Shown piece after piece: positions 15,901 through 64,000 of a DNA stretch of 64,000 bases. The notes under the pieces are model-generated. The model made no database searches. It saw nothing but the letters and a program-made list of their open reading frames with translations, and had not been told where the DNA came from. A program made the position numbers and the translations under genes. The DNA is from Caldimicrobium sp. (lineage in GTDB: Bacteria; Desulfobacterota; Thermodesulfobacteria; Thermodesulfobacteriales; Thermodesulfobacteriaceae), in the NCBI GenBank assembly GCA_037443245.1, contig JBBIOT010000001.1, positions 436,572 to 500,571 of the forward strand, given 5' to 3'. Numbering within the stretch: position 1 is the stretch's first letter; each line of letters opens with the position of its first letter.

Positions 15901-16322
15901 ATCTTGCCGGTGGGTGTTTCTTCAAAGCGATAATCCATCTTGACAAGAGAGAATCTCCAGTCCTCAGAAGTAGGCGAGACAAAGGCGACAAGCGCAGCAT
16001 CTTTTAATTTTCCGCCTCTACTTCCTTTTAAATACCATGCAGTGAAGTTTCTTTGCATTGTTCTTGCACGCTCAAGAGAAGTTTCTTTTTTAAGAGTCAC
16101 AATTAGCAAATCAATCTCTTTATCATCGTAAGTATACTTTCCAACCCTTTCTAACGAACCGATGTATTTTTCAAAAGCATCAGGGATGTAATTGCCTTGA
16201 TAAACGAATGTTTTCTCCTCAAAAGATTTTAAGAGATTTTTTAGAAAAGTTATAAATTGAGTCTTATCAAACGGATTTTCAAAAGTGTTAATTACGAGTC
16301 TTTTTGCCTGTTCTCTATCCAT
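12930..16322 (-). CDS. Eco57I-like gamma-class N6-adenine DNA methyltransferase with fused TaqI-like target-recognition domain
   Basis: 1130 aa. Motif order is YYTPREIV (X), CDPAVGSGAFP (I, SAM) and IANPPYV (IV). The C-terminal FGIKTGYNEAFII block is typical of the TaqI-like specificity domain. The function of the roughly 190-aa N-terminal domain is unclear. Confidence 0.85.
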   Translation of the reverse strand: MDREQAKRLVINTFENPFDKTQFITFLKNLLKSFEEKTFVYQGNYIPDAFEKYIGSLERVGKYTYDDKEIDLLIVTLKKETSLERARTMQRNFTAWYLKGSRGGKLKDAALVAFVSPTSEDWRFSLVKMDYRFEETPTGKIKVKEEFTPARRWSFLVGKNEKSHTAQSRFLPILANDDFRPTLEDLEKAFDIEVVSEEFFKKYRDLFIRTKLELDKIVHKDTKVKKEFESKNINTVDFAKKLLGQIVFLYFLQKKGWFGVEKGKPWGTGPKDFIRRLFNKEFGDYKNFFNDILEPLFYEALRTDRSADDHYYSRFNCKIPFLNGGLFDPINNYDWVNTDILLPNELFSNKNRTKEGDIGDGILDVFDRYNFTVNEEEPLEKEVALDPELLGKIYEKLNAIRSDNFDEYVQVLKSGKKGEETKFNKEYGVYYTPREIVHYMCQQSLIYYLENELSGNANREDIEKFIKYAELIIENEARVIEKGKETRDYKHQLPESIRQNATHIDNLLADIKVCDPAVGSGAFPIGMMHEIVKLRQLLSVYTGQKINPYDLKRHCIENSLYGVDIDPGAVEICKLRFWLSMIVDEGDFYNIKPLPNLDYKVVCGNSLLGVEKDLFNQSAFSKLEKLKPQYFNETNPTKKQQLKNEIDKLIYEITKGHKEFDFEVYFSEVFHQKGGFDIVIANPPYVRQERIKYIKPVLQKAGYRVYNSTSDLYTYFYEKAWQISKQNGFICFISSNKWMRAKYGEKLRKLLKEDSEVLLIIDFGGYPVFEQTVDTNIILFKKKSSSGIPSSKVKFVNVNSLPPREDLISYIENSYNFIPQKKLDDKCWTLADEKVLNLKEKIERMGKPLKEWNVKIYFGIKTGYNEAFIIDTETRNKILANCKTEEERKRTEEIIKPILRGRDIGRYYYKWAGLWLIKIESGWTNKNRGRINPEEFFKRTYPAIYNHLIQYGKVKGKGKGLFNRDDQGDYWWELRPCDYYPEFEKEKIVWQRVTQSPKFALVEPGFYCEATTHFITGANLKFLLGIFSSKLFEFSFYKFYMGGGIEGEIKGEFIGRFPIPPITSQNQHIAKQIEKLVDEILYLTQSEDYLENPQKQEKVKEYEHQIDQLVYKLYGLTKEEIKIIEGGSNE

Positions 16323-16416
16323 TCTTTTAACCTCAATTTATTTCTTACGAACTCTCTTACTTTTTCTGCAATTTCTATTGCTTCCTTTGTAATCTAATTT
16401 TTTACAGTCTCTTCAT
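16323..16416 (-). pseudogene. HEPN gene relic (internal deletion)
   Basis: An ATGA overlap with the MNT stop gives only MKRL-stop. Another frame reads ITKEAIEIAEKVREFVRNKL, which resembles the C-terminal tail of HEPN partners and the tail of the second relic at 22198-22350. No Rx4-6H motif is left. Confidence 0.35.
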
Positions 16417-16751
16417 TCATAGATTCTTATTCCTTCTTTAATAACATAATGTGTTAAGTAACCCACATCGTTTATTCTTTTTTCTACTACAGATTGTGAT
16501 TGAATAATTATATCATTTGGAAATCTCAACTCAGCTAATTTTTTTCTTATTTGAGCATTGAGTTTCCTTTTACGACTGAAGTCTACATCTTTATCAACAA
16601 CAACATAAAAGTCCCAGTCGCTATCCTTGGTATAATTTCCTTTTGCTCTACTGCCAAAAAGATATATCACCTTTACTTCCAGTCCGAACTTATTAGTTTC
16701 TTCAAGGATTATTTGTTTTGCTATCTCAATTTCTTTTTCCATTTTCACCAT
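16413..16751 (-). CDS. minimal nucleotidyltransferase (MNT, antitoxin-type)
   Basis: 112 aa with motif LFGSRAKGN...DSDWDF (GS...DxD). The ATG lies 2 nt after the helicase stop codon. Confidence 0.8.
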   Translation of the reverse strand: MVKMEKEIEIAKQIILEETNKFGLEVKVIYLFGSRAKGNYTKDSDWDFYVVVDKDVDFSRKRKLNAQIRKKLAELRFPNDIIIQSQSVVEKRINDVGYLTHYVIKEGIRIYE

Positions 16752-16753
16752 CT

Positions 16754-19700
16754 TTATTCGTTAATTTCCTTTGCTAAATAAAGTGATAATATAACTTCCC
16801 TTTTTCCTTCAGTGGAAGCAGAAGTTTCTGCATAGTGACTTTTTAGAAATGCAGGTGAGATTTCTCTTTGGAGAACGCCAAGAACTTTTAATGGATTGTC
16901 TATCTCTTTTTCAAGTTTGTTTAATGCCTTTAAAACTTTTTGAACTGTTTTTTTGGGAAATGCACCTTGTTCAAGTCGGTTTATAAGTTCTTTAAGATAT
17001 TCTTCCTGCTCTTCAGTAAATTGTTTGCTATTTTTTTGGGTTACCTTTAGGATTTTTAGAAGTTTAGAATAACTGTCAGAACCGCCACGCCTACGGGTGT
17101 CAATAATCTCTTCAATAGTTGCATTAAAAAACGCAGTTTTATTCTTATCAAGAAGTTCATAGTAATCTTCAAGAGGTAGTTTTGCTCTTTTTTCGTCTGG
17201 TGAACACTCAAGTATCCTTGCGGCGGTAAGGAAATCAAGCTCTATTGTTCGCTTACTTTTGCTATCCGTAAAGAAGAATTTCATTAACTTACCTTTCCTA
17301 AAGAAAGTAATTAAAGAATTAGGAGGAGCGATATCTTTTAGAGATTGGGAATACAACTTTGCAGAACGAGCCTTCTTTGGAAGTCGCTTTATCTTTTCAA
17401 AGAGTTCAGGATTGTTATCGCGAATATCTTCAATAATTCTTAAATACTTAAGTTCACTTTCTTCTTCTTCATCTTCTATAATGGTTTTCTTTGAAAGTAG
17501 TTTATCAAATAGCTCATGAGAGGTAACAGGTTCACCTTCAGTAAGTATTGCGCTATCACTGCCAAGCAATGTTAAAAATGCTTCTATTTTTGAACGAGCA
17601 ATTTTTGTAAGTTCAATTTCAGAATCTGCTTGTTTTGTCGGGAAAAAAGTGAAAGTGTAAATTTTGTCAAACGGGGTATCTATTCTGTTAATCCTTCCTA
17701 CCCTTTGTATTAATCTTGTTGGATTCCAGGGTATATCATAATTTATCACGATATTTGACCTGTGGAGATTAACGCCTTCAGAAAGAACTTCGGTTGAGAC
17801 AAGAATTCTATAATCATCTTTTTTATTTTTTGCCCTTGCATCAAAGTTTTCTATGACTCTGTCCCTCACTTCTTCAGGTGAACTACCATGAAATAGAAGG
17901 GCAATTTTACCAAATTTATTATTTATATTTTCAGTCAAATACTCTGCAGTTTCTTTTGACTCTGTAAAGATGATTATTTTCTTATTTTTTAGGATTGGGT
18001 TATTTCTTAATTCATTTAGCAAGGTCTCAAGTTTTGGGTCCCTTTCTACAGATTGCCACTTTAACTTTATTTGTTTTAAAATCTCTAAGTCATTCGTTAG
18101 GGCTTGTTCAAAGTCAGGTCTAAAATCTTGGCTGTTATATCTTTCTGCTTTTCCTTCTTCAATAACTTTCTGAACTGCTTCATCATCTCCTTGATCCAAA
18201 AGCTCAAAAATCTTGTTTATGTATCCTTTACTTATATAAACATTTCCCCTTTCATATTCTTTAATAAACATTTCATAGGAACGGATGAACCTGTCAATGC
18301 TTTTTCTGAATGCATAAAAACTACTTTCCAGCCTTTTTACAAGGAGAACCTTCATAAAACCGCCCATATTTCTTTGAGATTGTGCTTCCAGTGGGGAAAT
18401 TAGTTTCTTTAAATAAAGTAATGGCATATAACGAGCATATTTGAATTTCTGTGTTATTAACTCTACTGTCTCCATAAAAATTTTGTCTTCTTCATCGTTC
18501 AATTGGTAATAAAAAGGTTTTGGGTCTTCTACTTCTGGAAATTTGACATTGTTTTTCCTTAAGTCCTCTGCAAAATATTTTTCAATCTCATTTCTTGTTC
18601 TTCTAACCATTATGTATTTCAAAACTTTATCGCGAATCTTTTTTGCATTATTTCTTACTCTTTCAAGATACTGATCATAATTGTTAACACGGTCAACTTC
18701 TTTTAATTCACTCTCAAGTCTTTTAAAAAAATCTTCAAGATTAGGTAATCCAGGAATTGTGCTTTTTCTTACATTCTGAAAAAGTTTAATCTGTGCAAGA
18801 ATATCCATGGGTGAGTTATTATAAGGAGTTGCAGAGACCAAAATTACTCTTTTCCCACGACAAATTTCAGCAATTGCTTCATAACTAATAGTTGTCTCTG
18901 TTCTGAAACGATGGGATTCGTCTATGATGATATTTTTATATTCTCTTTGTTCAATAAGTCTTTTTGCCTCATCAAGTTTTCCTGTTGAAACAAATTCAGC
19001 AGGAATATGAAAATCTGAAAAAACATTTGGCCATGACCCAGGATTATTTTTATTAAGTAGCGATGGTGGTGCTATGACAAGGGTTCTACCATCAAGTTGT
19101 CCAGCAAGCATTGCACAAATATAGGTTTTTCCGAGTCCTACCACATCTGAGATAAAAACTCCGCCATATTCCTCTAATATCTTCTTTGCATTCAAAACTG
19201 CTTGCTCTTGATATTCAAATCTTTTGAAACCATAAGGCAAATATTTTATAAAAACTTCATCAGTTCTTGTGAGTTCATCCTTAAAATATTCGTATAAGAA
19301 TTTAAGATAAAGCTCATAAGGGGTGATATTTTGATTTAACCAGGTTCTTTCATTTATTGTTTGAACATACTTTTCACTAACATCAACTGCATCCTTCCAT
19401 AATTCTTCAAATTTATTCTTTGCAAACTCATAATCGGCCCTGTTCTTTAGTTCCACATTGAATTCAAGGTTGTCCTCTAATCCAGATTGGGTAAAATTGC
19501 TTGAACCTGTTATAACCCTTCCTACATCCCTATCACCTTCTTTAAAAGTTATAATATATAATTTTGCATGAATATTTTGAGACTGATAAGCCCTTATCTC
19601 CAGTTTCCCTTCTTTTATCCATTCAATAAACTTTTGCACGCCTTTTTCAACATCTGGACTATCCTCTGAATCCGCCATTTCATACTCTATGGCGTTTCCA

Positions 19701-20017
19701 ATTTTTTGTTTTACCTCTGCATGAGAGAATTGAGAAGAACTTAGGGACTGATTTTGTCCCATTTTCATCAATTCGTAAGTTTCCCTTGATGTCCCAATCC
19801 CAATAAGAATTCTTATTTTCTCAGTGTTTTGCAGGGCTTTGTACAAGGCATGAAATCCACTTACATAAAAAAAAGCAACAAGACAATCAAAGAACTTACA
19901 ATCTTTAATTAGTTGCTCAAATCTATTCTTGAGTGTCTGACCAGGTTCATTTACTATAAATGTTAAATCTAAAGGTGGCTTTTCATTTTTAGACAAATCT
20001 CCAACATCCCGTGCCAT
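16754..20017 (-). CDS. PLD(HKD)-nuclease / SF2 (SNF2-like) helicase fusion protein
   Basis: 1087 aa. A single N-terminal HKD motif, NIHAKLYII...VITGSSNFTQSGL. Helicase motifs I DVVGLGKT, II IIIDESHRF, III LVSATPYNN, V LSEGVNLH and VI QRVGRINR. I recognise no motif in the roughly 300-aa C-terminal region. Confidence 0.85.
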   Translation of the reverse strand: MARDVGDLSKNEKPPLDLTFIVNEPGQTLKNRFEQLIKDCKFFDCLVAFFYVSGFHALYKALQNTEKIRILIGIGTSRETYELMKMGQNQSLSSSQFSHAEVKQKIGNAIEYEMADSEDSPDVEKGVQKFIEWIKEGKLEIRAYQSQNIHAKLYIITFKEGDRDVGRVITGSSNFTQSGLEDNLEFNVELKNRADYEFAKNKFEELWKDAVDVSEKYVQTINERTWLNQNITPYELYLKFLYEYFKDELTRTDEVFIKYLPYGFKRFEYQEQAVLNAKKILEEYGGVFISDVVGLGKTYICAMLAGQLDGRTLVIAPPSLLNKNNPGSWPNVFSDFHIPAEFVSTGKLDEAKRLIEQREYKNIIIDESHRFRTETTISYEAIAEICRGKRVILVSATPYNNSPMDILAQIKLFQNVRKSTIPGLPNLEDFFKRLESELKEVDRVNNYDQYLERVRNNAKKIRDKVLKYIMVRRTRNEIEKYFAEDLRKNNVKFPEVEDPKPFYYQLNDEEDKIFMETVELITQKFKYARYMPLLYLKKLISPLEAQSQRNMGGFMKVLLVKRLESSFYAFRKSIDRFIRSYEMFIKEYERGNVYISKGYINKIFELLDQGDDEAVQKVIEEGKAERYNSQDFRPDFEQALTNDLEILKQIKLKWQSVERDPKLETLLNELRNNPILKNKKIIIFTESKETAEYLTENINNKFGKIALLFHGSSPEEVRDRVIENFDARAKNKKDDYRILVSTEVLSEGVNLHRSNIVINYDIPWNPTRLIQRVGRINRIDTPFDKIYTFTFFPTKQADSEIELTKIARSKIEAFLTLLGSDSAILTEGEPVTSHELFDKLLSKKTIIEDEEEESELKYLRIIEDIRDNNPELFEKIKRLPKKARSAKLYSQSLKDIAPPNSLITFFRKGKLMKFFFTDSKSKRTIELDFLTAARILECSPDEKRAKLPLEDYYELLDKNKTAFFNATIEEIIDTRRRGGSDSYSKLLKILKVTQKNSKQFTEEQEEYLKELINRLEQGAFPKKTVQKVLKALNKLEKEIDNPLKVLGVLQREISPAFLKSHYAETSASTEGKREVILSLYLAKEINE

Positions 20018-20059
20018 AATTAATTTCTCCTAGCTTCTTTACGGTATCCTCATCACTGC

Positions 20060-20302
20060 CTATAATATACTAAAAAGTGTAGATAGTTTTTCAAGAGCAA
20101 TTTGCCATAAGGCTGGGGCAAGGATTGAATTTTGACTTCCCTAATCCTTTTTGGAAATTTTTTGTCTTCTTGGATAAATCTTCTCTTTAAAACAACCTGT
20201 CTATATGATTCTCTTTCTTCATTTTCAGGGCTTAATTCTGAGCCATGATCTTCGGAAGCTTATGTATAAAACATCTGCGTCTTCATCATAGTCTATCCAC
20301 AT
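20060..20302 (-). pseudogene. frameshifted second DUF2283-like gene
   Basis: Hand translation MWIDYDEDADVLYISFRR parallels KVWYDEEMDILYVSFKEG of the intact neighbour. The frame then breaks, and the continuation is readable only in another frame. Confidence 0.3.
20061..20094 (-). promoter_or_regulatory. possible promoter of the helicase-MNT-methyltransferase operon
   Basis: On the minus strand, TTGAAA is followed 16-19 nt later by a TAGTATATT region. GGAGAA SD sits before the ATG at 20017. Weak match. Confidence 0.25.
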
Positions 20303-20388
20303 CTTTTTCTGAGGAAGCTTCATCATCTACCTCTATTTTACTGTGCCTGTAAATTTTTTCTCCATATGTAGTCTTAAAGGATTTGTTA

Positions 20389-20616
20389 TCATGCACCCTT
20401 TACCGCTTCTTTTAATTGAGATGCTAACGATTTGGCAACCATTTTTGTGACATTATGAATTTCAACTCCTAAGATTTCTCTCTCTTTCCCATACTCAACC
20501 CGCACATCTTCTTCTATTTCTTCCGAATCAAGCGCAGGTCCTTCTTTAAAGGAAACATAAAGTATATCCATTTCCTCATCGTACCATACTTTTATTTTAT
20601 TCTGAGCCACTTCCAT
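20389..20616 (-). CDS. DUF2283-family protein (antitoxin-type partner of DUF4258)
   Basis: 75 aa. KVWYDEEMDILYVSFKEGP...ILGVEIHNV matches the DUF2283 pattern as I recall it. Confidence 0.7.
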   Translation of the reverse strand: MEVAQNKIKVWYDEEMDILYVSFKEGPALDSEEIEEDVRVEYGKEREILGVEIHNVTKMVAKSLASQLKEAVKGA

Positions 20617-20879
20617 CCCTCCTTTCTTTTGATTTCTCTCTCTATATTCTTACAAGGATAAACAGTTATTATTATTTTTGTTGAATCATTTTTTCTTATG
20701 GATCACAATTAAACTTGTTGTTATTTTTCAGCCTCAATTTTTCCAATAGAAACGAAACTTTTTGAAACAATATCATAAAATATAAGCTCAGCATTTTTAA
20801 GAACTTTCTTTATATCTTCAAGATTAATTCTCCTTTCTTCTATTTTAAGCTTTGCATGTTTAGAAAATTTAATTTTCAT
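20592..20879 (-). pseudogene. DUF4258-type toxin gene with three in-frame stops
   Basis: MKIKFSKHAKLKIEERRINLEDIKKVLKNAELIFYD...GKIEAEK, then TAA-QQV-TAA-L-TGA, then SIRKNDSTKIIITVYPCKN in the same frame. The start overlaps the hsdS stop (ATGA) and the end overlaps the DUF2283 start. Confidence 0.55.
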
Positions 20880-21625
20880 ATCTCCCTAATCCTTATTTTG
20901 CCAAAAACAAGTTTTGGAAGTAATTCATCCCTTATCTTTCGTAAAAGCATAATTTGTTTTTGATTGAGGATGATTTTTTTGAAAAGCGGTTCAACGAGGG
21001 AGTGAAATTGGTGGAGGATGGAGGGAGGGGGAATAGGGATTAGATAATTTTCTCTGAAGTTTTTTATATCAAATCTCCAAACTCCAGTACCCGTATGATA
21101 TGTTTGGGCTAAGTCTTCTTGATAAATCCTAAATATCAAGTAAATTAATGTTTTGTAATCCTCATTTTCAGGACATATCTTCGTTATATGATGGGAATAA
21201 ACTCCTAAATCTTTGTTATAGCCATCTGGGAAAATCACAAACGCAGGAGAAGCTAATAACCTCCCCGATTTAGTCTGTTCTGTATTTGCAAATATTAAGT
21301 CTCTTTCCTTAACAAAATGTTTTTCCTTTAGCCGATTACTTTTTATCCAAGTAAATTCTGTCTTGAAACCTCCACCTTCTTTGATGTTATTTAGAGTGAT
21401 GAAAACATAAGAGTTATCCACTGAATCCCTAAATTTTTCACTTCCTTTATAGGATAAACCATTAATAAATTCTGCAACCTCCCCAATCGCTTTTACCTCC
21501 CACCCCTTTGGTATCTCCTTTCCCAGCTCCTCGTGATAGACAAACTCACCATCTTTAAATGGTTCAAAATCAACAAACCAGTTTTTAAAAATTGCCATTG
21601 CGGTTTTTTCCAAAATCTCATTCTG

Positions 21626-26071: not shown

Positions 26072-27262
26072 TTACAATCCCCAAAAGGAAAGTAAAGTGG
26101 CCTCAAGGATGCCAAATTCACTGATAATAACTTCAGATAAGGAAAAATAATTTAAAAGTTCAAGATATATGGCTAAAGCTGGAATTAAAAGGTCTTCCCG
26201 TCCTCTCTCCATGCCTTTTAGTTTAGCTAGTTGAGAATAGGTCAAACCTATCACTCTTTCGGAGAGCTTTATTAACCTATCCCAGGTTAAACGATGCCCA
26301 TGAAGAAGATCAAAATCAAAGTCCTTGAGCTTCAAATCTATGGCCCCTAAAAGGGAGGCTGAGCCACCAGTGACAATCATAAAGGGACTTGCCCTAAAAG
26401 ATAGCTCCTTAGTTCTTTCCCTCACATATTCTCTTAAGGACTGAAAGACCCGTGAAGTAATGGGATATTTTAGCTTAAATAAATCCCGCAGGAAAACTAC
26501 TCCCAAATCTAAGCTGAAAATTTCTGGAGTCCCATCTTTTTTATAATTTATGATCTCCGTTGATCCTCCACCTACATCCACCACCAAAAAATGATCCAAG
26601 TTCAAACCTAAGATCTTCAAACCAAACTCAACACCTTTGAGGGTAAGCTTAGCCTCTTCCTCAGGACTTAGTATCCGGATGGAAATCCCTAATTTTTCTT
26701 CTACTTCCCTTAGAAAGCTTTCTCCATTCTTGGCCTGTCTAAAAACAGCTGTTCCTACTGCGTTAATCCTTTTAACCTCATATTTGTTCAGGAAGGATTT
26801 GAATTTTCCCAGGGCTGTTAAGCCTCTTTTAATAGCTTCCTCTCCCAAAAAACCTCTATCCTTAAGATTTTCACCAAGCCTCACGTTCTCTCGGCCGCGC
26901 CAAAGAAACAACGGTTGACCGTTAAAAAATTTTCCTAAAATAAGCCTAAAGGTTTGCGTCCCAAGATCAAGCCCAGCCTCAAAGGGAGTATTTAACCTCT
27001 CTAAAAGCTCTTTACTATTCTTAAATAGGACCCTCCTTTTCTCCTTGATAAAGTATTTCTGTTGATTCTTGGGATTAAAAAACCAAGCCCCCTTTCCTAC
27101 TCTAGGCTCCAAAATCCCAAAACCGCGGAGCTCTATGGCCTGGCCATTTTGAAGAGCCTCAATTAAGACCTCAAAAAAAGCTTCAATCAACTCTAAGATA
27201 ATATCATCATCTACATCAGGAAAGGATTTTTTTAAGATCTTAGCTAAATCTTTTTTCGTCAT
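26072..27262 (-). CDS. HU/IHF-like DNA-binding domain fused to Ppx/GppA-family phosphatase
   Basis: 396 aa. Residues 1-90 look like HU/IHF ([10 protein letters not shown]...FNPKN...[11 protein letters not shown]). The remainder has ASKHA/Ppx motifs [19 protein letters not shown] and VDVGGGSTE. Confidence 0.75.
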
Positions 27263-40556: not shown

Positions 40557-40631
40557 CGCCCCCAAGGGGATTCGAACCCCTGTCGCCGGCGTGAAAGGCC
40601 GGTGTCCTGGACCTGGCTAGACGATGGGGGC
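40557..40631 (-). tRNA. tRNA-Glu (UUC)
   Basis: Hand-folded. Acceptor GCCCCCA/TGGGGGC, anticodon arm CCGGC-CTTTCAC-GCCGG, T loop GGTTCGAATCC. No encoded CCA. Confidence 0.85.
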
Positions 40632-40645
40632 TTTCTCCTCTTCTC

Positions 40646-40718
40646 TGGGCCGGGCAGGACTCGAACCTGCGACTCCCAGCTTAAAAGGCTGGTACTCTGC
40701 CGACTGAGTTACCGGCCC
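40646..40718 (-). tRNA. tRNA-Lys (UUU)
   Basis: Hand-folded. Acceptor GGGCCGG/CCGGCCC, anticodon arm CCAGC-CTTTTAA-GCTGG, T loop GGTTCGAGTCC. No encoded CCA. Confidence 0.85.
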
Positions 40719-47961: not shown

Positions 47962-49500
47962 ATGTCAAATTTTACCAGAAAACAGGCCGAGTTAATTGCC
48001 CTTTTAGAGATCAGTAAGGTTCTCAATTCTTCTTTCAATTTAATAGAAAATTTGCATCAAGCCTTAAATCTACTTTCTTATCATTTGGATATGAGAAGAG
48101 GAACGGTAACCCTCTTTGACAAAGCGGCGGGAGAGTTAAGGATTGTGGCTGCTTCGGGATTAACCCAGGAGCAAATGGCCCGAGGTCGTTATAAAATAGG
48201 GGAAGGGATTGTGGGCCGAGTCTTTGAGATGGGAGAACCCATTATCATCCCTAATATTGGAAAGGAACCCCTATTTTTAAATCGAACAGGGGCAAGAATA
48301 GACAAAAATAATATCTCTTTTCTTTGTGTCCCCATTAAATTAAACGAAGAGATCCTGGGAGTTCTCTCCGTTGACCGGATCTTTGATGAAAGCATTTCCT
48401 TTGAGGAAGATTTAAGAGTCCTTGAAGTGGTCTCAATTCTCATTGCTCAAGCTATAAAGCTTTACGAAGCTTATGAAAAGGAACGTTCCCGCCGGGAGGA
48501 GCTGGAACTGGAGATCCGTGATCGCTACCGATTCCATAACCTTATCTATCGTAGTAAAACTATGCGAGAAATTGTCAAAACCTGCATTAAAATTGCCAAC
48601 ACTAAAGCTACCGTTTTAATCAGAGGGGAGAGTGGTACGGGAAAGGAGCTTTTAGCTAAGGCTATGCATTTGAATAGCGATCGAGCTGATAAACCCTTTA
48701 TCGCCATAAACTGTGCCGCCATCCCGGAAAGCCTCCTTGAAGCTGAGCTTTTTGGGTTTGAAAAAGGGGCCTACACTGGAGCTGTCCACACCAAACGGGG
48801 GAAAATTGAGCTTGCCAACGGAGGTACTCTTTTCTTGGATGAAATCGGGGATATGCCCGTCTCCCTTCAAGTAAAACTTCTTCGCTTCTTGCAGGATCAA
48901 ACTATTGAAAGACTAGGGGGGACCAAATCTATAAAGGTTGACGTAAGGGTTATTTGTGCCACCCATAGGCCCTTAGAAAAACTCATTCAGGAAGGAAAAT
49001 TTCGAGAAGACCTCTACTTCCGACTTAATGTGGTCCCTATTTTTTTACCTCCCCTTAGGGAAAGAAAAGAAGATATTCCTCTGCTGGTAGAACACTTCCT
49101 TCAAAAATTTAACTCCCTCTATCATAAAAGAGTAAAATTAAGCGCCAAGGTTTTAGATAAAATTCTTAACTACCCCTTCCCCGGAAATGTTCGGGAATTA
49201 GAAAATCTTATGGAACGCTTGGTTCTCTTAGCAGAAGAGGAAGTAATAGACCTTCACCACCTCCCTTCCGAGATAGTTAACCCAAGAATTAAAAGCTTTC
49301 CTATGCAGCAGAATATTTATGAAGATTTCAAAAATCTGGAAAAAGAAAGCATTCTTAAAGCTTTGCTGGAATGTAATTTTAATCAAACTAAGGCCGCAAA
49401 GCTCCTTGGATTAACTAGAAGACAATTAGCTTACCGAATATTGAAATACAATCTCAAGTCAGAACTTTGGCAAAAATTAAGCTTAAAGGAATCATCTTAG
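47962..49500 (+). CDS. sigma-54-dependent transcriptional activator (GAF-AAA+-Fis HTH; NifA/NtrC-like)
   Basis: GAF domain. AAA+ motifs GESGTGKE, EKGAYTGA (GAFTGA variant) and LFLDEIG. C-terminal HTH QTKAAKLLGLTRRQLAYR. The track start is a TTG at 47917; I prefer the ATG at 47962. Confidence 0.88.
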   Translation: MSNFTRKQAELIALLEISKVLNSSFNLIENLHQALNLLSYHLDMRRGTVTLFDKAAGELRIVAASGLTQEQMARGRYKIGEGIVGRVFEMGEPIIIPNIGKEPLFLNRTGARIDKNNISFLCVPIKLNEEILGVLSVDRIFDESISFEEDLRVLEVVSILIAQAIKLYEAYEKERSRREELELEIRDRYRFHNLIYRSKTMREIVKTCIKIANTKATVLIRGESGTGKELLAKAMHLNSDRADKPFIAINCAAIPESLLEAELFGFEKGAYTGAVHTKRGKIELANGGTLFLDEIGDMPVSLQVKLLRFLQDQTIERLGGTKSIKVDVRVICATHRPLEKLIQEGKFREDLYFRLNVVPIFLPPLRERKEDIPLLVEHFLQKFNSLYHKRVKLSAKVLDKILNYPFPGNVRELENLMERLVLLAEEEVIDLHHLPSEIVNPRIKSFPMQQNIYEDFKNLEKESILKALLECNFNQTKAAKLLGLTRRQLAYRILKYNLKSELWQKLSLKESS

Positions 49501-50436
49501 GTGAAAACAATCCCCAGAATAAACCTTAATCCTCTGGTCTTGACTTTGCAAGATTAAAGCACCATCATCATCAAGGTCAAGGGCTAATCCTTCATAACTA
49601 CCGTGTAAGGTCTGTACCCTTACTTTTTTCCCCAGAGTGGAAGAGAGTTCCTTCCACCGGGAGAGAATTTTTGGCCAATTTGCCTCCTCGTAGGATTTCG
49701 CAAAAGCATGGAGGAGGTTTTTCAAAAAAAGAAACCTATCCACTTTACCTCCCAAAAGTTCCGAAACCGATATGGCCTCTTGGGGAAAGGTAAGATGACT
49801 TACAGGATTATTAAGATTCACACCAATTCCGATTAGGACAAATTTAAGATAATCCGCCTCGCCATTTAGCTCAAGGAGAATACCAGCCACCTTTTTTCCT
49901 TGAAGAAGCACATCGTTAGGCCATTTCAACTCAGGGGTTACTCGGTAGCTCTTTTCCAAAGCTTCGGCAACTGCAAGGGCTGATAAATAGGGTAAGACAA
50001 AGGCCTCGCGCAAAGGCATGGGCTCAAGTAGAATAAGGGTTAACCACAACCCTCCAGACGGAGAAAGCCATTCCCGTCCAAGCCTCCCCCTCCCTTGAGT
50101 TTGCCTTTCCGCAATCACTACCGCCCGTATTTGATCCTCGGCCAAACTGCGAGCTACATCCATCGTAGAGGGCACCTCAAACTCATACACCACCCTTTCC
50201 CAAAGGGGTAACTCTTCAATAACCTTGGGGAGTTCCCAGAAGGGTAGAAGGTCTTTATCCTGAAGAAGGTATCCCTTACTAGTGACCGCAATAGATAATC
50301 CTTTATTTTTTAATCTTTTGATAGCCTTCCAGATAGCGGTCCTACTTTTCTGCAGGCTTTTCGCTAAGAAGGACCCTGAAATTTCCTTTTCCGCCTGCTG
50401 AAGAATTTTTAGGATTTCTTCTTCCAATCTGGACAT
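49492..50436 (-). CDS. birA: bifunctional biotin-[acetyl-CoA-carboxylase] ligase / repressor
   Basis: 314 aa. N-terminal wHTH, GRGRLGREW and KWPNDV motifs, SH3-like C-domain. Confidence 0.9.
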   Translation of the reverse strand: MSRLEEEILKILQQAEKEISGSFLAKSLQKSRTAIWKAIKRLKNKGLSIAVTSKGYLLQDKDLLPFWELPKVIEELPLWERVVYEFEVPSTMDVARSLAEDQIRAVVIAERQTQGRGRLGREWLSPSGGLWLTLILLEPMPLREAFVLPYLSALAVAEALEKSYRVTPELKWPNDVLLQGKKVAGILLELNGEADYLKFVLIGIGVNLNNPVSHLTFPQEAISVSELLGGKVDRFLFLKNLLHAFAKSYEEANWPKILSRWKELSSTLGKKVRVQTLHGSYEGLALDLDDDGALILQSQDQRIKVYSGDCFHLR

Positions 50437-50446
50437 ATTGAAAAAA

Positions 50447-50537
50447 CGGAGGAGGAGGGATTCGAACCCCCGGTGCGGGCTTTAACCCGCACAGCCGATT
50501 TCGAGTCGGCCCCCTTCGTCCACTCGGGCACTCCTCC
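50447..50537 (-). tRNA. tRNA-Ser (CGA)
   Basis: Hand-folded. Acceptor GGAGGAG/CTCCTCC, anticodon arm GCCGA-CTCGAAA-TCGGC, long variable arm TGTGCGGGTTAAAGCCCGCAC. No encoded CCA. Confidence 0.85.
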
Positions 50538-51407: not shown

Positions 51408-51896
51408 CTAAAGAAAGGCTGTTTTTCGTTTCGGCCTGAAAAAATTCTTGAGCAGCTCTTCGGCCTCCCTTTGGTAAGGTCCATACCTAACGTTTAGGCG
51501 ATGGTTTAAGTGGGGATCATTGGCCAGTTGGTATAAACTTATACAGGCTCCGGTTTTGGGGTCTGGAGTGGCAAAGATGAGTTCGGCAATCCTTGCCAAA
51601 ACCATGGCATACACACACATTGGGCAGGGCTCCAAAGTGACATAAAGTTTACACCCTAAAAGACGATAATTGCCAAGTTTTTTGGCCCCTTCTCTTAAGA
51701 CCAAAATTTCGGCATGAGCGGTGGGATCAGTAAGGGTGAGAATCCGGTTGTGATCCTTGGCCAAAATTTCTCCTCCCGGAGAAACAAGAACAGCCCCAAC
51801 AGGCACCTCATTTTCCGCAAAAGCCTTCCTTGCTTCTTCCAGGGCTAAGGCCATAAATTTAAAATCTTCCTCGTTAAAGGTGCCTTTCATTGGCAA
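51408..51896 (-). CDS. tadA: tRNA-specific adenosine deaminase
   Basis: 162 aa with HAE and PCPMC zinc motifs. Confidence 0.9.
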   Translation of the reverse strand: MPMKGTFNEEDFKFMALALEEARKAFAENEVPVGAVLVSPGGEILAKDHNRILTLTDPTAHAEILVLREGAKKLGNYRLLGCKLYVTLEPCPMCVYAMVLARIAELIFATPDPKTGACISLYQLANDPHLNHRLNVRYGPYQREAEELLKNFFRPKRKTAFL

Positions 51897-53527
51897 AGCC
51901 TAAATAGTAAAGAGCTTAAAAAGAACATAAGAAAAGGAAGAAGGGAAAGGAGCTCAAGATAAACCACCTGACCAAGAACTCTTCTTCCCAAGGTCTGATA
52001 TAAAATAAGACCTCCGATAGGAACAAGTAAATAGAAAAAAAATAGAGGTGTCAAAATGGCTTCAATCATGGGTAAAACTCCAAGACCCAATAGAAGAATT
52101 TTAAATAATTTTTTCACCCTTTTTTCTTCAAAATCAAAAAGGCTTATCCAAAAAGTTTTCGGTAAAAAACCATCTGTCTGTAGATAAAGATTTTCTAAAT
52201 AAATTTCAGCTAAAAATAAGGTTAAAAGGCCAAGCATGGACAAAAAGATAAACTGGTTGTCCCAGTAAAAATACCAATAAAAGATCAGGCTTAGATATAT
52301 AAGAAGGTTTAACAAAGCTTGGAAAGGACTGGTGCGTAAAATAAAAATAAGGATCAGAAAGACAAAAATTAAACTCAGTATTCGGGGAAGGTAAAGAATA
52401 CCAAACAGGATGCTCAAAGAAGCAAAAAAAAGAATAAGAAAGATAATTAGCCCCTTTTTTTGATAAAACTCTCCCCGTTCAGGATAAAAAAAGGAAAAGC
52501 TTTCTCGGGAAGAAAAATTGCTTAGAATGAGAGAGAAAAGATTTAATCCTAAAGAAAAGATAAGGAAATAAAGGTCCTTTAAGGTAAAAATGTGCCCTTT
52601 AGCTAAAAGTAGAGAAAGAAGAAGAAGGGGGATGAAAAGGGCCTTGTAAAACTGAGGAATAGCTATCCCGCGAAGGACCACATAAAGGGGAGAGCTTTTT
52701 CTTTTGAGAAGGTCTACCACCGAATTGATGAGCCAATTTGGGGTTGAGGCACCTGCGGTTACACCTACTTTAGCTATCTTCTTTATTTCTGCCAAGGGTA
52801 ATTCTTCGGGCTTTTCTACCAAAAAGACCCTTTTTCCTTCAGATTCTGCAATCTGAGCCAGGCGCTTCGTATTGGCTGAAAATTTCCCCCCTACCACCAC
52901 AATAGCCTCGCAGGTTTCACAAAGCCTTCTCACCTCTGTCTGTCTTACTTCGGTAGCATTACAAATGGTGTTGACCACTTCCACCTCTTTAAATCTTTCG
53001 GTTATGGCCTGAGAAAGAAAGGAAAAAACCTCTTCATCCTGGGTAGTTTGTGATAAAACCATGTATTTTCCCGTTGAGTCAAGGGTTTCCAAATCGTTAA
53101 GAGAATTAACCACATAGCCTTTCCCTTGACAAAATCCAAGAATACCCTTAACCTCCGCATGATCTGGATCACCAATAATGATCACCGATTTTCCTTCCTT
53201 GACTGCCCTTTCAGCTAGGGCTTGGACCTTTAAAACTCGGGGACAGGTGCCATCAAGGAGTTGAAATCTTTGGGCAAGAATTTGCCTCTCCTGAGGGGGA
53301 ATACCATGGGCTCGGATGACACAAATGGCCCCTTCCTTTCCCTCTTCAGGGTCCTTAATAACCTTAACTCCTAATTTACTCAATAGTTCCAGGGTTTGAG
53401 GATTGTGAATAAGTGGACCATAGGTGTAGATCGGAGGGGTAGATAGGGTTAGGGCCTTTAAAACTAAGTGCACTGCCCTTCTTACCCCCATGCAAAAGCC
53501 AGCCTTTTTGGCAATCTCTACCTTCAT
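51887..53527 (-). CDS. ispH: 4-hydroxy-3-methylbut-2-enyl diphosphate reductase fused to a C-terminal polytopic membrane domain
   Basis: Residues 1-280 are a colinear IspH (GFCMGV, GTCP, TICNAT cluster cysteines, GVTAGASTP). Residues 285-546 have about 8 hydrophobic segments and no Asp-rich prenyltransferase motif that I can see. Confidence 0.8.
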   Translation of the reverse strand: MKVEIAKKAGFCMGVRRAVHLVLKALTLSTPPIYTYGPLIHNPQTLELLSKLGVKVIKDPEEGKEGAICVIRAHGIPPQERQILAQRFQLLDGTCPRVLKVQALAERAVKEGKSVIIIGDPDHAEVKGILGFCQGKGYVVNSLNDLETLDSTGKYMVLSQTTQDEEVFSFLSQAITERFKEVEVVNTICNATEVRQTEVRRLCETCEAIVVVGGKFSANTKRLAQIAESEGKRVFLVEKPEELPLAEIKKIAKVGVTAGASTPNWLINSVVDLLKRKSSPLYVVLRGIAIPQFYKALFIPLLLLSLLLAKGHIFTLKDLYFLIFSLGLNLFSLILSNFSSRESFSFFYPERGEFYQKKGLIIFLILFFASLSILFGILYLPRILSLIFVFLILIFILRTSPFQALLNLLIYLSLIFYWYFYWDNQFIFLSMLGLLTLFLAEIYLENLYLQTDGFLPKTFWISLFDFEEKRVKKLFKILLLGLGVLPMIEAILTPLFFFYLLVPIGGLILYQTLGRRVLGQVVYLELLSLLPFLMFFLSSLLFRLCQ

Positions 53528-61100: not shown

Positions 61101-61410
61101 TTTAGCCGATTTTGGCCTTAACGTTAAGATCGTCCCTAAGATTTCGGAGGGTAGAAGACCTAATATTTTAGATCTTATTAAAAATAAAGAAATTGATCTG
61201 GTGATCAACACCGCCAAAGGAAAGGTTAGTAGGGAGGATGCCTATCTTATAAGACGCTTTGCCATGGAACTTGATATTCCTTATGCTACCACTGTTGCGG
61301 GCGCAAGGGCCATGGTTTGTAGCATTAGAAGACTTAGAGAAAAGAGTTTTTCCTATTCCTACTTACAAAAATATTATCAAACTTTGCCCTTTAATTATTA
61401 TCAAAGGTAA
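58150..61410 (+). CDS. carB: carbamoyl-phosphate synthase large subunit
   Basis: 1086 aa. Duplicated ATP-grasp halves, oligomerisation domain and MGS-like C-domain. Typical N-terminus [22 protein letters not shown]. Confidence 0.95.
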
Positions 61411-62165
61411 ATGATTTCTCCAGCGTTGAATTCTAAAAGGCCCTCTGGGGTTTCCAAAAGAAGGCTCCCCGTTTCGGTTACCCCAACTACCTTCCCGATG
61501 ATTGGCTCATCTTGGTCAAGATTATAAGCAAAGGCCACGCATTGGCCTAAGCTGTCGCTAAACCTGTAAAAGTCGTTTAGAATAGCGCATTCTCGCTCTT
61601 CTTCAGCAAGAAAAGCCTTTTCATAAACTAAAAGATCTTCATAGTAGAAGTTCATCCAAAAAATTAACTCCTCTAATACTTTAACCAGAGAAACCTCTTT
61701 ACCTAAAAGTTCTTTCAAGTTAATCGCAGGAATACTTGGTGGAGGAGGATTATTCACGTTCATTCCTAAACCGATGATGAACCAATCTTGGTAGCGCTCT
61801 AAAAGGATACCTCCTAATTTTTTTCCCTGATAATGGGGATCGCTTATCCATTTTAGTCTTACCATTTTTGCACCAAGCTGATGGGTAGTTCTAACCATGG
61901 CTATACCAAAAAGAAGAGTAAGCAGGGAAGAATGCTGAGGGAGGAGTTCGTCGTAGAGACTTAAGGCTAGCCAGAGCCCTCCTTTTTCGGCATACCATTT
62001 CCGAGAAAAACGTCCTTTAGCTTGGGTTAATTCCTGGGAGACGATGATCCTTCCGTGAGCTGTGCGAGGATATTTTAGGACAAGCTCCTTAGCAAGTTCC
62101 ATGGCCCGGGGGAGGTGAGGATAAAACCAAATTTCCCTTCCGATAATCCCCCTTAAACTGGCCAC
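61401..62165 (-). CDS. biotin/lipoate protein ligase-family paralogue without HTH (divergent BPL)
   Basis: 254 aa. It has KGRFSRKW in place of GRGRxGRxW and KWISDP in place of KWPND, and an SH3-like C-terminus. 13-nt overlap with the upstream gene. Confidence 0.65.
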
Positions 62166-62812
62166 TCCTCTTTGATCCTTTCAACGATCCTTTCTAGGAT
62201 AGGTAAATCTTCCTTGGGACAAAGGGCCACCAAAGGGGATCCCTTTGACACCAACTCAAAGGGTTTAAAATAGACTTGATAGATAATGAACCGCCCTTCC
62301 TGATGAAGTTTAAGAAAATGTTCCCTTTTCATAAAGGTCATGATCAAAAGATCTTCTCCACCCCAAACTTCAGCTTTTCTTAAACCATATTTTTCAAGAC
62401 GCTGAGCTATTTCGGGTGTAAAAATGAACCGGGCGGTCTCCTCCGCATAAATAACGTATAAAGCGGAAAGCAAAATTTCTCCTATAATTTCTTCTTGGGA
62501 AAGGGGATGTTTAATCTCCAAGATAAGCTCGTTAGCTTCTACGAATTTTTGTAAAAGGTCAACTTTTAGGTTTTGCACAATCCCTGAGGTTTGAGCTCGG
62601 ATGAGTTTAAGATTCCTTTCCCTTTCTAAAACAAAAAGTGGTGTGCCTGGCTTTTCCAACCATTTTCCAGAAGGACCAAGCACTTCATCTCCTTCTTTGA
62701 CCTTAAATTCCCTAAGATATCCTGTGTGGGGGGTCAAGACCGGAAAAATTTTGTAGGGATTAGCTCGAAACTTTTGTAAAAGTAAATTTATTTCTTGAAA
62801 ATTGATCTTCAT
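62153..62812 (-). CDS. biotinyl/lipoyl-like hybrid-motif protein lacking the canonical (A/E)MKM lysine motif
   Basis: I prefer the start MKINFQE at 62812, which has an AGGTAGGA SD and lies 4 nt after the accD-like stop. FKVKEGDEV...GTPLFVLERERNLKLIRAQTSGIV resembles a BCCP hairpin but has ERERN where EAMKM is expected. Confidence 0.55.
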   Translation of the reverse strand: MKINFQEINLLLQKFRANPYKIFPVLTPHTGYLREFKVKEGDEVLGPSGKWLEKPGTPLFVLERERNLKLIRAQTSGIVQNLKVDLLQKFVEANELILEIKHPLSQEEIIGEILLSALYVIYAEETARFIFTPEIAQRLEKYGLRKAEVWGGEDLLIMTFMKREHFLKLHQEGRFIIYQVYFKPFELVSKGSPLVALCPKEDLPILERIVERIKEEWPV

Positions 62813-62816
62813 TTTC

Positions 62817-63986
62817 CTACCTATAGTAGAGATTTTTTCCGCCCATAGTAAGGAGGGCATGAAAAAGTTTTTTCCGCAATTCCCGACGATCCCATATCCC
62901 TTGAATATGTCCTCTACGGAGGGCATTTTCTGCAGAATGATAGTCAGGGGGAGGAGGTTGTCCAGTAGTTTCATGAATGACCCTTGGTCCGGCAAAACCA
63001 AGTCTGGTAGATTTCAGGGCAAATTGATAAGGAGCTGAGCCAAGAAAACTTGCCACGGGACCGGCGTAGGAATTATTGTCATAAATCACCAAATATAGGC
63101 CTCCCGCATCCACATAATCTCTAACCGCCATGGTACAGCGGGGCATTTGGACCACCCCCACCGTCCCTTCCTGTATCCTTATCCCACCAGTACTATGGAT
63201 GATCATGATAAAAGGACGCCGAGAAATTTTTGCTAACTGAATAGCTCGGATAATTTTTTCTCCTTCGGCAGCTCCAACTGTCCCTTGCCTAAAATCGGCC
63301 ACCAGCATCCCACAGACCACAGATATTCCTCCAATCTTAGCCGTAAAAGATAGGAAGGCCGAATTCAAGCCTGTCCTTATCCGATCTTGCTTCAATTTTT
63401 CAGAATGTCCTTCAAAGTTCAAGGGATTAGTGGAGACTATTTCTTCATCAAAAAATTTTAAAGTCCCTGGATCAAAGAGGTTTTGTAAATACCATTGATA
63501 ATCAAGAAAAAAATGGTAACCACAATAAGGACAAACCCCACAGAACTCTCCGTATAGGTCTGGGATCCAAAGATCTGGACAACCGAACTTCTCAGCCTGA
63601 GGACAAGTAACAGTTCGATCCTCTAAGCCCAAGGGAGAAGGAAAGAATACTGTCTCTTCTTCGGCCATGCCCGGCAATTTGGGCCGCACCTTTTTCCCAA
63701 CAATTAAGTTATAGACAGACTTAACAGGATCCGAAACAGGCTTCAAAAGGAGGCTTGATTCACTTAAAATGTTATCTATCAACCGCTTGACCGTTTTTTG
63801 CCCACTTTTTAAGACCCGATATTTAATTTCATTTCCTACGATGCGTAGCAAATTTTCCCCTTTTTCCTTAAGAGTATAACTTAAGCCCCTGGGCATTATC
63901 ACCGCCCATTGAGTCATTTTCCGATATTTTTCATAACGCAGTTCAATAAGGATTTCTCTTTCGTCCTCCGAAAGCTCCCAATCCAC
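62817..63986 (-). CDS. acetyl-CoA carboxylase carboxyltransferase beta (AccD)-like protein with N-terminal extension
   Basis: 389 aa. The carboxyltransferase core (GGISVVCGMLVADFRQGTVGAAEGEKI, STGGIRIQEG, GFAGPRVI) follows an atypical Cys cluster, CPQAEKFGCP...CGVCPYCGYH. About 130 extra N-terminal residues. Confidence 0.7.
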   Translation of the reverse strand: MDWELSEDEREILIELRYEKYRKMTQWAVIMPRGLSYTLKEKGENLLRIVGNEIKYRVLKSGQKTVKRLIDNILSESSLLLKPVSDPVKSVYNLIVGKKVRPKLPGMAEEETVFFPSPLGLEDRTVTCPQAEKFGCPDLWIPDLYGEFCGVCPYCGYHFFLDYQWYLQNLFDPGTLKFFDEEIVSTNPLNFEGHSEKLKQDRIRTGLNSAFLSFTAKIGGISVVCGMLVADFRQGTVGAAEGEKIIRAIQLAKISRRPFIMIIHSTGGIRIQEGTVGVVQMPRCTMAVRDYVDAGGLYLVIYDNNSYAGPVASFLGSAPYQFALKSTRLGFAGPRVIHETTGQPPPPDYHSAENALRRGHIQGIWDRRELRKKLFHALLTMGGKNLYYR

Positions 63987-64000
63987 ATAATAACTAAAAT

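Follow-up and report, generated by a model that had tools for sequence, protein, structure and literature searches.

The heteromeric acetyl-CoA carboxylase (ACC) of Escherichia coli, which consists of AccC, AccB, AccA, and AccD, is the closest described relative of a set of genes that lies at the edge of a 64,000-nucleotide stretch of DNA from Caldimicrobium sp. We analysed this entire stretch, which we will call the window. The genes encode a carboxyltransferase, a biotin carboxyl carrier protein (BCCP) with two domains, and a second biotin protein ligase (BPL), which we will call BPL2. As in the E. coli enzyme, there are four functional modules, the carboxyltransferase halves bear glycine-rich motifs, a putative zinc ribbon precedes the AccD core, and the carrier's lysine is at a hairpin tip. 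In contrast to the E. coli enzyme, AccA and AccD form one fused protein, alpha before beta, and are joined by a linker of about 175 residues; the first knuckle of the ribbon is Cx7C instead of CxxC; the usual N-terminal region of the carrier is replaced by a second biotinyl-fold domain, in which the lysine is variable; the motif around the carrier's lysine is MKR(E/D)T instead of (A/V)MKM; the subunits score at about half of the equivalog cutoffs; and the operon includes a BPL gene.

The closest described relatives of BPL2 are the group I BPLs of Pyrococcus horikoshii (1WNL/2EJF) and Aquifex aeolicus (2EAY), which also have a catalytic domain and a BPL_C domain and lack a helix-turn-helix (HTH). 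BPL2 keeps several residues of the P. horikoshii enzyme: K111 (K116 in BPL2), R48 (R52), R51 (R55), W53 (W57), and the GxGxN motif. But S21-T22-N23 of the P. horikoshii enzyme is R/S-A/G-M/F in the BPL2 family, Q42 is L/I/V/M, G45 is A/S, and the proline of KWPND is I/V. Genomes with two BPLs, in which a group II BirA is found beside a second ligase without an HTH, have been described before: Francisella novicida (with BirA and BplA), Lactococcus lactis, and Clostridium acetobutylicum (PMC4462617, PMC4861984, PMC3199775). In the literature on these genomes, we found no report of a second ligase that lacks the S-T and Q contacts or that is linked in an operon to a special BCCP; this is an absence from the literature that we searched and not a proven difference.

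The carrier has a partial parallel in plants. The BADC proteins (10.1101/634550) have a biotinyl-fold module in which no modifiable lysine is conserved, and they are associated with a heteromeric ACCase. In the system described here, the lysine-less module is instead fused to a lysine-bearing domain in a single polypeptide. A search of the literature on the ACC and BPL of Thermodesulfobacterium or Desulfobacterota turned up nothing relevant, and neither the two-domain carrier architecture nor the BPL2 subfamily was described in the literature we searched.

We propose that the whole system is a heteromeric, biotin-dependent acetyl-CoA (acyl-CoA) carboxylase of Thermodesulfobacteria that is divergent but complete, and we put the probability of this at roughly 0.7. 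Most likely, it is an ACC of the housekeeping type that has its own dedicated ligase for biotin.

The operon and its carboxylase subunits

An earlier note on this DNA, made from the sequence alone, described three genes on the minus strand, separated by a gap of 4 nt and an overlap of 13 nt. The open reading frame (ORF) listing and our direct reading agree with that description. These are the three genes, along with the canonical ligase that we used as a comparator:

62817–63986, open to the window edge (62817–64000), minus strand: the AccD-like part of the carboxyltransferase ORF (ORF listing and direct reading)
62153–62812, minus strand: the gene for the two-domain carrier, 219 amino acids, with an ATG at 62812 (ORF listing and direct reading)
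61401–62165, minus strand: the ligase gene bpl2, 254 amino acids, with a GTG start at 62165 (ORF listing and direct reading)
49492–50436, minus strand: canonical group II BirA, 314 amino acids, with an N-terminal repressor-type HTH (TIGR00121, 188 bits; TIGR00122 birA_repr_reg, 4e-12)

The carboxyltransferase gene ends with a TAG stop at 62817–62819; after 4 nt (62813–62816), the carrier begins with its ATG. The carrier's stop codon lies within the 13 nt (62153–62165) that are shared with the beginning of bpl2, and the same 13-nt overlap is found at two related loci, L002 and L005.

The earlier note also raised the possibility that the operon continues beyond the end of the window, and it does. 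An exact-sequence look-up with the carrier protein led to the contig L001, whose sequence is the same as that of the window over 10,001 nt (0 mismatches). The carboxyltransferase reading frame is free of stop codons up to position 64000, and L001 shows that the gene begins 1027 nt past the window end. The upstream extension reveals accC and the AccA half of the carboxyltransferase, so that the gene string in L001 is purA-accC-accAD-accB*-bpl2, where accB* is the carrier gene:

purA: adenylosuccinate synthase; 12 nt to accC
accC: biotin carboxylase, 466 amino acids (NF006367, 2.1e-98); 4 nt to accAD
accAD: AccA-AccD fusion, 736 amino acids; 4 nt to accB*
accB*: carrier, 219 amino acids; 13-nt overlap with bpl2
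bpl2: ligase, 254 amino acids; the last gene of the string

A six-frame motif scan of the 64-kb window found no biotinyl protein besides the carrier. On the other side of bpl2 is carB, which is on the plus strand and ends at 61410; since bpl2 is on the minus strand and ends at 61401, the two genes are convergent and their 3' ends overlap by 10 nt (61401–61410). L002 keeps this carB neighbour, and so does another locus, L125, which lacks the acc genes.

The 736-residue fusion (L001 7786–9996) matches the NCBIfam model for AccA across residues 36–321 (1.7e-59) and the model for accD across residues 497–725 (1.8e-44). Sources annotate it as 'acetyl-CoA carboxylase carboxyl transferase subunit alpha/beta'. 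Of the AccA-homologous region, only the final 34 residues fall inside the window; they are followed by the interdomain linker and the complete AccD-like half. The earlier note had seen no AccA-like gene and had given its AccD-like protein some 130 extra residues at the N-terminus. Because the ORF is the C-terminal half of the fusion, these "extra" residues belong to the linker between the domains, and their apparent oddity is an artefact of the window edge. The AccA half is not missing; it sits just past the window end.

By direct reading, the AccA half contains TPGAYP and EGGSGGA, the AccD half contains STGGIRIQEG, and AccC contains EVNTRIQVE along with the Lys and Arg. By comparison with E. 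coli ACC, these are the glycine-rich motifs of the carboxyltransferase and the catalytic motifs of the biotin carboxylase. The carboxyltransferase cores are conserved at 0.8–0.95. AccC (466 amino acids in L001) has the Pfam domains Biotin_carb_N, CPSase_L_D2, and Biotin_carb_C, and it scores below the equivalog cutoffs. More broadly, the system is divergent, as all of the subunits reach only about half of the NCBIfam equivalog cutoffs: 201.7 bits against 357 for AccA, 152–153 against 317 for accD, and 309 against 626 for accC.

The AccD half also has an unusual cluster of cysteines:

63522–63605, minus strand: putative zinc ribbon of a variant form in the AccD half, C475-x7-C483-x15-C499-x2-C502, numbered along the full-length protein (direct reading)

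The earlier note had flagged this cluster as atypical, and it is a real feature of the family. All four of these cysteines are invariant in 66 of 66 homologues, and a fifth cysteine, C496, is present in 61 of the 66. From its pattern of cysteines, the cluster is a putative zinc ribbon with a widened first knuckle. The ribbon of E. coli AccD has the same x15 and CxxC spacing, but its first knuckle is CxxC.

The two domains of the carrier

The AlphaFold2 (AF2) model of the carrier, built from a 64-sequence alignment, has a pLDDT of 91.5. It shows two beta-rich domains, with hairpins at residues 58–64/67–72 and 154–160/163–168. When we compared the model to known structures with Foldseek, BCCP domains were the top matches. 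The carrier gene is found directly after accC-accAD in L001–L005 and in 37 of the 43 genome loci in which accC, accAD, and the carrier were all detected. The two domains are:

62498–62761, minus strand: N-terminal pseudo-biotinyl domain, amino acids 18–105 (AF2 and Foldseek)
62213–62470, minus strand: C-terminal biotinyl domain, amino acids 115–200, with a helix insertion (profile search, AF2, and Pfam in an orthologue)

In the C-terminal domain, M161 and K162 are at the tip of the hairpin, within the motif IMTFMKRE (the codon for K162 is at 62327–62329). When the family profile was compared to PDB sequences, the best match aligned amino acids 147–201 to the biotinyl domain of human MCC-alpha (2EJM; E = 1.8e-4). 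In this alignment, "llimsfMKRetpi" is paired with "LMVMIAMKMEHTI", which places K162 on the biotinylated lysine of AMKM. In an exhaustive HMMER search of 1.84 billion representatives, all of the relatives that turned up have K162, even at 19% identity, and AMKME is the reading in one of them. Furthermore, the C-terminal domain of the orthologue from Desulfopila aestuarii matches PF00364 with 30.1 bits (the cutoff is 22.1). We infer that K162, which is in the canonical position at the hairpin tip, is the predicted site of biotinylation.

The earlier note described the carrier as a BCCP-like protein without MKM, with ERERNLK where the modified lysine would be expected. It is true that the window carrier departs from the (A/V)MKM consensus, as it reads F-M-K-R-E, and ERERNLK is indeed in a hairpin, but it is the hairpin of the N-terminal domain (58–64/67–72). 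The note overlooked the second domain, with its invariant M161-K162. Its idea that the carrier would have no conserved lysine in the canonical position of a BCCP does not hold, given the alignment of K162 to the MCC-alpha lysine, the invariance of K162 down to 19% identity, and the PF00364 match of the orthologue. Nevertheless, the carrier is non-canonical, with MKR(E/D)T instead of MKM and a pseudo-biotinyl domain in front.

When the N-terminal domain was modelled alone, AF2 gave a pLDDT of 87.7, and Foldseek gave target-normalised TM-scores of 0.85–0.93 to BCCP domains. The window carrier's match to PF00364 is on this domain, with 16.7 bits, which is below the gathering threshold of 22.1 bits. 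The residue at the tip of the hairpin, where a biotinyl lysine would be, is R66 (62615–62617). This placement is based on the AF2 hairpin, on the fold match from Foldseek, and on the spacing as counted from the match to 1.3S, across 12 intervening 1.3S residues; the profile matches of the N-terminal domain to solved BCCPs cover only amino acids 23–49 and give no residue-level alignment of its hairpin. Across 80 genome loci, the tip residue is R (47 loci), K (26), N (5), or G (2). Because residue 66 varies, it cannot be a conserved modification site. The nearby residues R64, E65, N67, and K69 are invariant in the 80 loci (the codon for K69 is at 62606–62608). K69 is off the hairpin tip in the AF2 model and is lost in more distant relatives of the carrier.

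By the models, the N-terminal domain has a biotinyl fold, and it most likely serves as a highly conserved, non-modified interaction module, standing in for the usual N-terminal region of AccB. We also considered a recent internal duplication of the carrier, which is unsupported: hhalign aligns the N-terminal and C-terminal domains only weakly, with E = 0.0068 and with the hairpin out of register. Finally, we compared the carriers from loci with and without an adjacent BPL2. Among the 80 genome loci, the sole difference is E or Q at position 125, so the carrier's columns give no clue to a second modification site.

The second ligase and its linkage to the carrier

BPL2 matches TIGR00121 with 109.2 bits (the cutoff is 83.1), PF03099 (BPL_LplA_LipB) with 34.5 bits, and PF02237 (BPL_C) with 31.3 bits. 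Its 254 amino acids include no N-terminal HTH. Its best matches among PDB sequences are the group I enzymes from Pyrococcus horikoshii and Aquifex, with E-values of 8e-21 to 1e-18, and the one from Methanocaldococcus. We mapped BPL2 to the P. horikoshii enzyme (Ph; E. coli BirA is Ec):

62100–62108, minus strand: R20-A21-M22 in place of S-T-N
62028–62030, minus strand: L46 in place of Q (Ph Q42)
61995–62021, minus strand: the segment in place of GRGRxGRxW
61839–61853, minus strand: KWISD in place of KWPND
61818–61820, minus strand: the catalytic lysine K116, which is retained (Ph K111, Ec K183)

We then compared these columns across 55 canonical BPLs, 19 orthologues of the window ligase, and 47 operon-linked BPLs from the genome loci. 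For the canonical BPLs and the 19 orthologues, the counts are:

R20 (Ph S21, Ec S89): S in 55/55 canonical BPLs; R in 11 and S in 7 of the 19 orthologues
A21 (Ph T22, Ec T90): T in 55/55; G in 11 and A in 7, with T in 0/19
L46 (Ph Q42, Ec Q112): Q in 55/55; L in 8, I in 8, and V in 3, with Q in 0/19
A49 (the first G of GRGR): G in 55/55; A in 19/19
I107 (the P of KWPND): P in 53/55; I in 17 and V in 2, with P in 0/19

The substitutions are common to all 47 of the operon-linked BPLs; in the Desulfobulbia, S, G, T, or P stands where the first glycine would be, and M or L stands in for Q. On the other hand, G51, R52, R55, W57, D109, K116, G132, G134, and N136 are kept in all BPL2 where the columns are covered (19/19 orthologues and the 47 operon-linked BPLs). 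In E. coli BirA, Q112 is a biotin contact, and the G115S mutant has a defect in biotin binding. The BirA of the window (49492–50436) has the canonical signature of STM, Q, GRGR, and KWPND. The earlier note's contrast between this BirA and a ligase with degenerate motifs, including KWISDP, is accurate as quoted. Its view of the ligase as divergent also stands, since BPL2 is unlike a standard group I BPL at the ligand-contact positions.

Of the genes in the operon, bpl2 evolves fastest: when the window is compared with strain TA1, the identity is 50% for BPL2, 65% for the carrier, and 74% for AccC and AccAD. We considered that BPL2 might be a redundant paralogue that is decaying. This is ruled out, as the catalytic motifs and the substituted positions are conserved at every locus that we examined. 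Because the catalytic residues and the replacement residues are both conserved across two classes, they point to a functional pocket that is under selection.

At one distantly related locus (L007 1432–2765), a 181-residue distant relative of the two-domain carrier, with AAAMVMKKRQD at the lysine, is followed by a group I BPL that is fully canonical (STM, Q, and GRGR). As this canonical BPL is in the same position as BPL2, the linkage of carrier and ligase seems to be older than the change in the pocket. (The called start of this BPL is apparently too far downstream, as the annotated ATG comes only after the STM motif.) Another variation is found in the ligases from Desulfobulbia (L066, L067, L054–L056, L062, L077, and L085), which have about 310–330 amino acids and a conserved N-terminal extension of about 50–60 residues (for instance, ...RYGA.VGS.IE.H...) that is unlike the HTH of BirA.

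To see how widespread the system is, we scanned one genome per species for the carrier motif [ILT]M[STY][FL]MKR[ED]T. It was present in 440 genomes from Thermodesulfobacteria and from Desulfobulbia-type lineages, including Desulfopila, Desulfosediminicola, Desulfurivibrionaceae, and SEEP-SRB2. Among the genome loci that we fetched, accC-accAD-carrier is the common arrangement. Of these loci, 80 extend far enough downstream to show what follows the carrier: a BPL-like gene comes directly after it in 48, and there is none nearby in the other 32 (5 more loci were too short downstream to judge). The ligase is present at this locus in nearly all Thermodesulfobacteria; the exceptions are Thermodesulfatator indicus and T. 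autotrophicus. In T. indicus (L003 7665–8537), the position of the ligase is occupied by an opposite-strand gene with a faint match to Y1_Tnp, so the ligase was possibly lost by an insertion or a rearrangement. In Desulfobulbaceae, the genes for the carrier and the ligase are paired by themselves, apart from accC and accAD.

For the reciprocal test, we searched metagenome contigs with a degenerate DNA pattern for the ligase motif [AS]KGRFxRxWxAxxGG[LV]W. This yielded 80 loci, of which 71 had enough upstream DNA to be informative. The ligases at the 80 loci, which were picked by this motif, also retain the catalytic lysine, GR..R.W, and GxGxN, and they carry the replacements as well. The carrier is directly upstream of the ligase in 69 of the 71; it is 1.7 kb away in one and absent in one (L125). 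Because of this near-constant association, we conclude that the carrier and the divergent ligase are a tightly co-inherited module, which spans Thermodesulfobacteria and Desulfobulbia. A dedicated ligase-carrier pair was proposed in the earlier note, and as a matter of linkage, both the genome and the metagenome loci bear this out. It also distinguishes BPL2 from the group I BPLs, as BPL2 is nearly always encoded beside one type of carrier. In L125, the divergent ligase (5117–5896) is preceded by ABC-permease-like genes instead of a carrier, and carB is convergent downstream.

A distant metagenome-assembled genome has the cluster without a linked ligase (L004 8532–10069). There, accC-accAD-carrier and a CobS-like gene are followed by genes for a BioC-like methyltransferase and BioD (AAA_26), which ties the cluster to biotin synthesis.

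The proposed role of BPL2 and its alternatives

Our proposal builds on gene content and gene order, on the domain architecture, on the canonical-position lysine, on the ligase's catalytic motifs, and on the genomic linkage, all of which the analysis shows. We propose that AccC would carboxylate biotin that is carried on K162, in the C-terminal domain of the carrier, and that the 736-residue AccA-AccD fusion (alpha then beta) would pass the carboxyl group to acetyl-CoA, the presumed substrate. The N-terminal pseudo-biotinyl domain of the carrier would act as an interaction module. BPL2, whose gene is translationally coupled to that of the carrier, would adenylate biotin and attach it to K162, beside the regulatory BirA. 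From its sequence, we lean somewhat towards biotin as the acid substrate of BPL2. We compared loci rather than whole genomes, which bears on the housekeeping role of the system and also on the absence of BPL2 in T. indicus.

Several observations weigh against this proposal. First, none of the four proteins scores higher than about half of its NCBIfam equivalog cutoff, which leaves room for a substrate other than acetyl-CoA. Second, BPL2 lacks the S-T, the Q, the first glycine of GRGR, and the proline of KWPND that canonical BPLs have. In E. coli BirA, biotin is described as forming hydrogen bonds with Ser89 and Thr90, which are pre-positioned for it (PMC2384007), and since these contacts are replaced in BPL2, biotin binding is not assured. 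Third, a canonical BirA is present in the same genome. Fourth, T. indicus and T. autotrophicus have the carrier but no BPL2 at this locus, so BPL2 may not be required for biotinylation.

We also considered, as a tentative alternative, that BPL2 might be an undescribed and ancient BPL subfamily of Thermodesulfobacteria and Desulfobulbia whose pocket, to judge from the altered residues, no longer binds biotin canonically. It might then use another acyl group, or it might be an ATP-dependent partner that is specific to the carrier.

A more specific version, which we think is rather unlikely, is that BPL2 is an active adenylate-forming ligase that uses an acid other than biotin (a precursor or analogue of biotin, octanoate, or lipoate), or that it modifies another lysine, such as K69, while BirA biotinylates K162. 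This would explain why the polar contacts to the biotin ring are replaced systematically (S by R/S, T by A/G/L, Q by L/I/V/M, and the first G by A/S) while the residues for adenylation and transfer are invariant. The conservation of the replacement set across two classes also points to selection for a different pocket and not to decay. Furthermore, K69 is invariant in the 80 loci, as are R64, E65, and N67, and the canonical BirA is at hand for ordinary biotinylation. However, AccC and the carboxyltransferase need a biotinylated carrier, and the operon encodes no second cofactor-dependent enzyme. The position of K69 in the model and its loss in distant relatives seem inconsistent with a role as the modified lysine, and apart from position 125, the carrier's columns do not separate the loci with BPL2 from those without it. 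BPL2 also scores above the cutoff of the birA_ligase model.

Slightly less likely still is that BPL2 is a non-catalytic or regulatory pseudo-ligase. It might bind the carrier, for instance by docking to the N-terminal hairpin, and control the assembly or activity of the carboxylase, with biotinylation left to BirA. The loss of the biotin-contact residues fits with this idea, and so do the rapid evolution of BPL2 (50% identity, compared to 65–74% for its neighbours) and its absence from the locus in some lineages that keep the carrier. Also, the charged hairpin of the N-terminal pseudo-domain, R-E-x-N-x-K, is invariant although it has no catalytic role that would be obvious, and in plants, lysine-less homologues of BCCP are known as regulators, namely the BADC proteins (10.1101/634550). 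But the catalytic lysine, the GR..R.W motif, D109, and GxGxN are invariant in all BPL2 that we examined, however deeply these have diverged, which is hard to explain without adenylate chemistry.

The earlier note's own reading, a carrier without a canonical modifiable lysine that serves a specialised carboxyltransferase without AccA, and that is possibly biotin-independent, is essentially excluded: although MKM is absent, the N-terminal hairpin reads ERERNLK, and the AccD-like half weakly matches the beta subunit of the biotin-independent malonate decarboxylase (1.4e-09, 37.7 bits against a cutoff of 278), the accD model fits the window protein far better (153 versus 38 bits), accC and the AccA half are directly upstream in the operon, and K162 is in the canonical position.

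The window has some other features that are unrelated to the carboxylase. At 12930–21613 (minus strand) is a low-GC island, with a GC content of 0.33–0.36 as compared to about 0.40–0.44 elsewhere, that contains defence-type genes: a 1130-residue fused restriction-modification methylase (Eco57I/MmeI-like), a 1087-residue PLD-nuclease/SNF2-type helicase, and a 245-residue ORF like the specificity (S) subunit of a type I system. Probably, this is an island for restriction or defence that arrived by horizontal transfer. A 396-residue ORF at 26072–27262 (minus strand) combines an HU-type Bac_DNA_binding domain (amino acids 1–91) with a Ppx/GppA phosphatase domain (amino acids 119–392); this could be a real fusion, or the ORF call could have joined two genes. 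A 546-residue ORF at 51887–53527 (minus strand) has an IspH/LytB domain at amino acids 3–274, and its C-terminal half has no Pfam match at E ≤ 1e-5. There are three tRNA genes, at 50447–50537 and 40557–40718, and one of them is immediately upstream of the canonical birA.

Returning to the carboxylase, most of the original puzzle turns out to be an ordinary ACC operon that was cut by the window edge. The architecture of its carrier, a pseudo-biotinyl domain with a variable residue at the lysine position followed by a true biotinyl domain with MKR, is widespread, as it occurs in the genomes of at least 440 species. The remaining anomaly is the ligase. If BPL2 still uses biotin, then the S-T and Q contacts would be dispensable, and BPL2 would be a natural BPL that is dedicated to one substrate and works beside a regulatory BirA. 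If BPL2 does not use biotin, then it would have a new protein-modification or regulatory activity that acts on a central enzyme of lipid synthesis.

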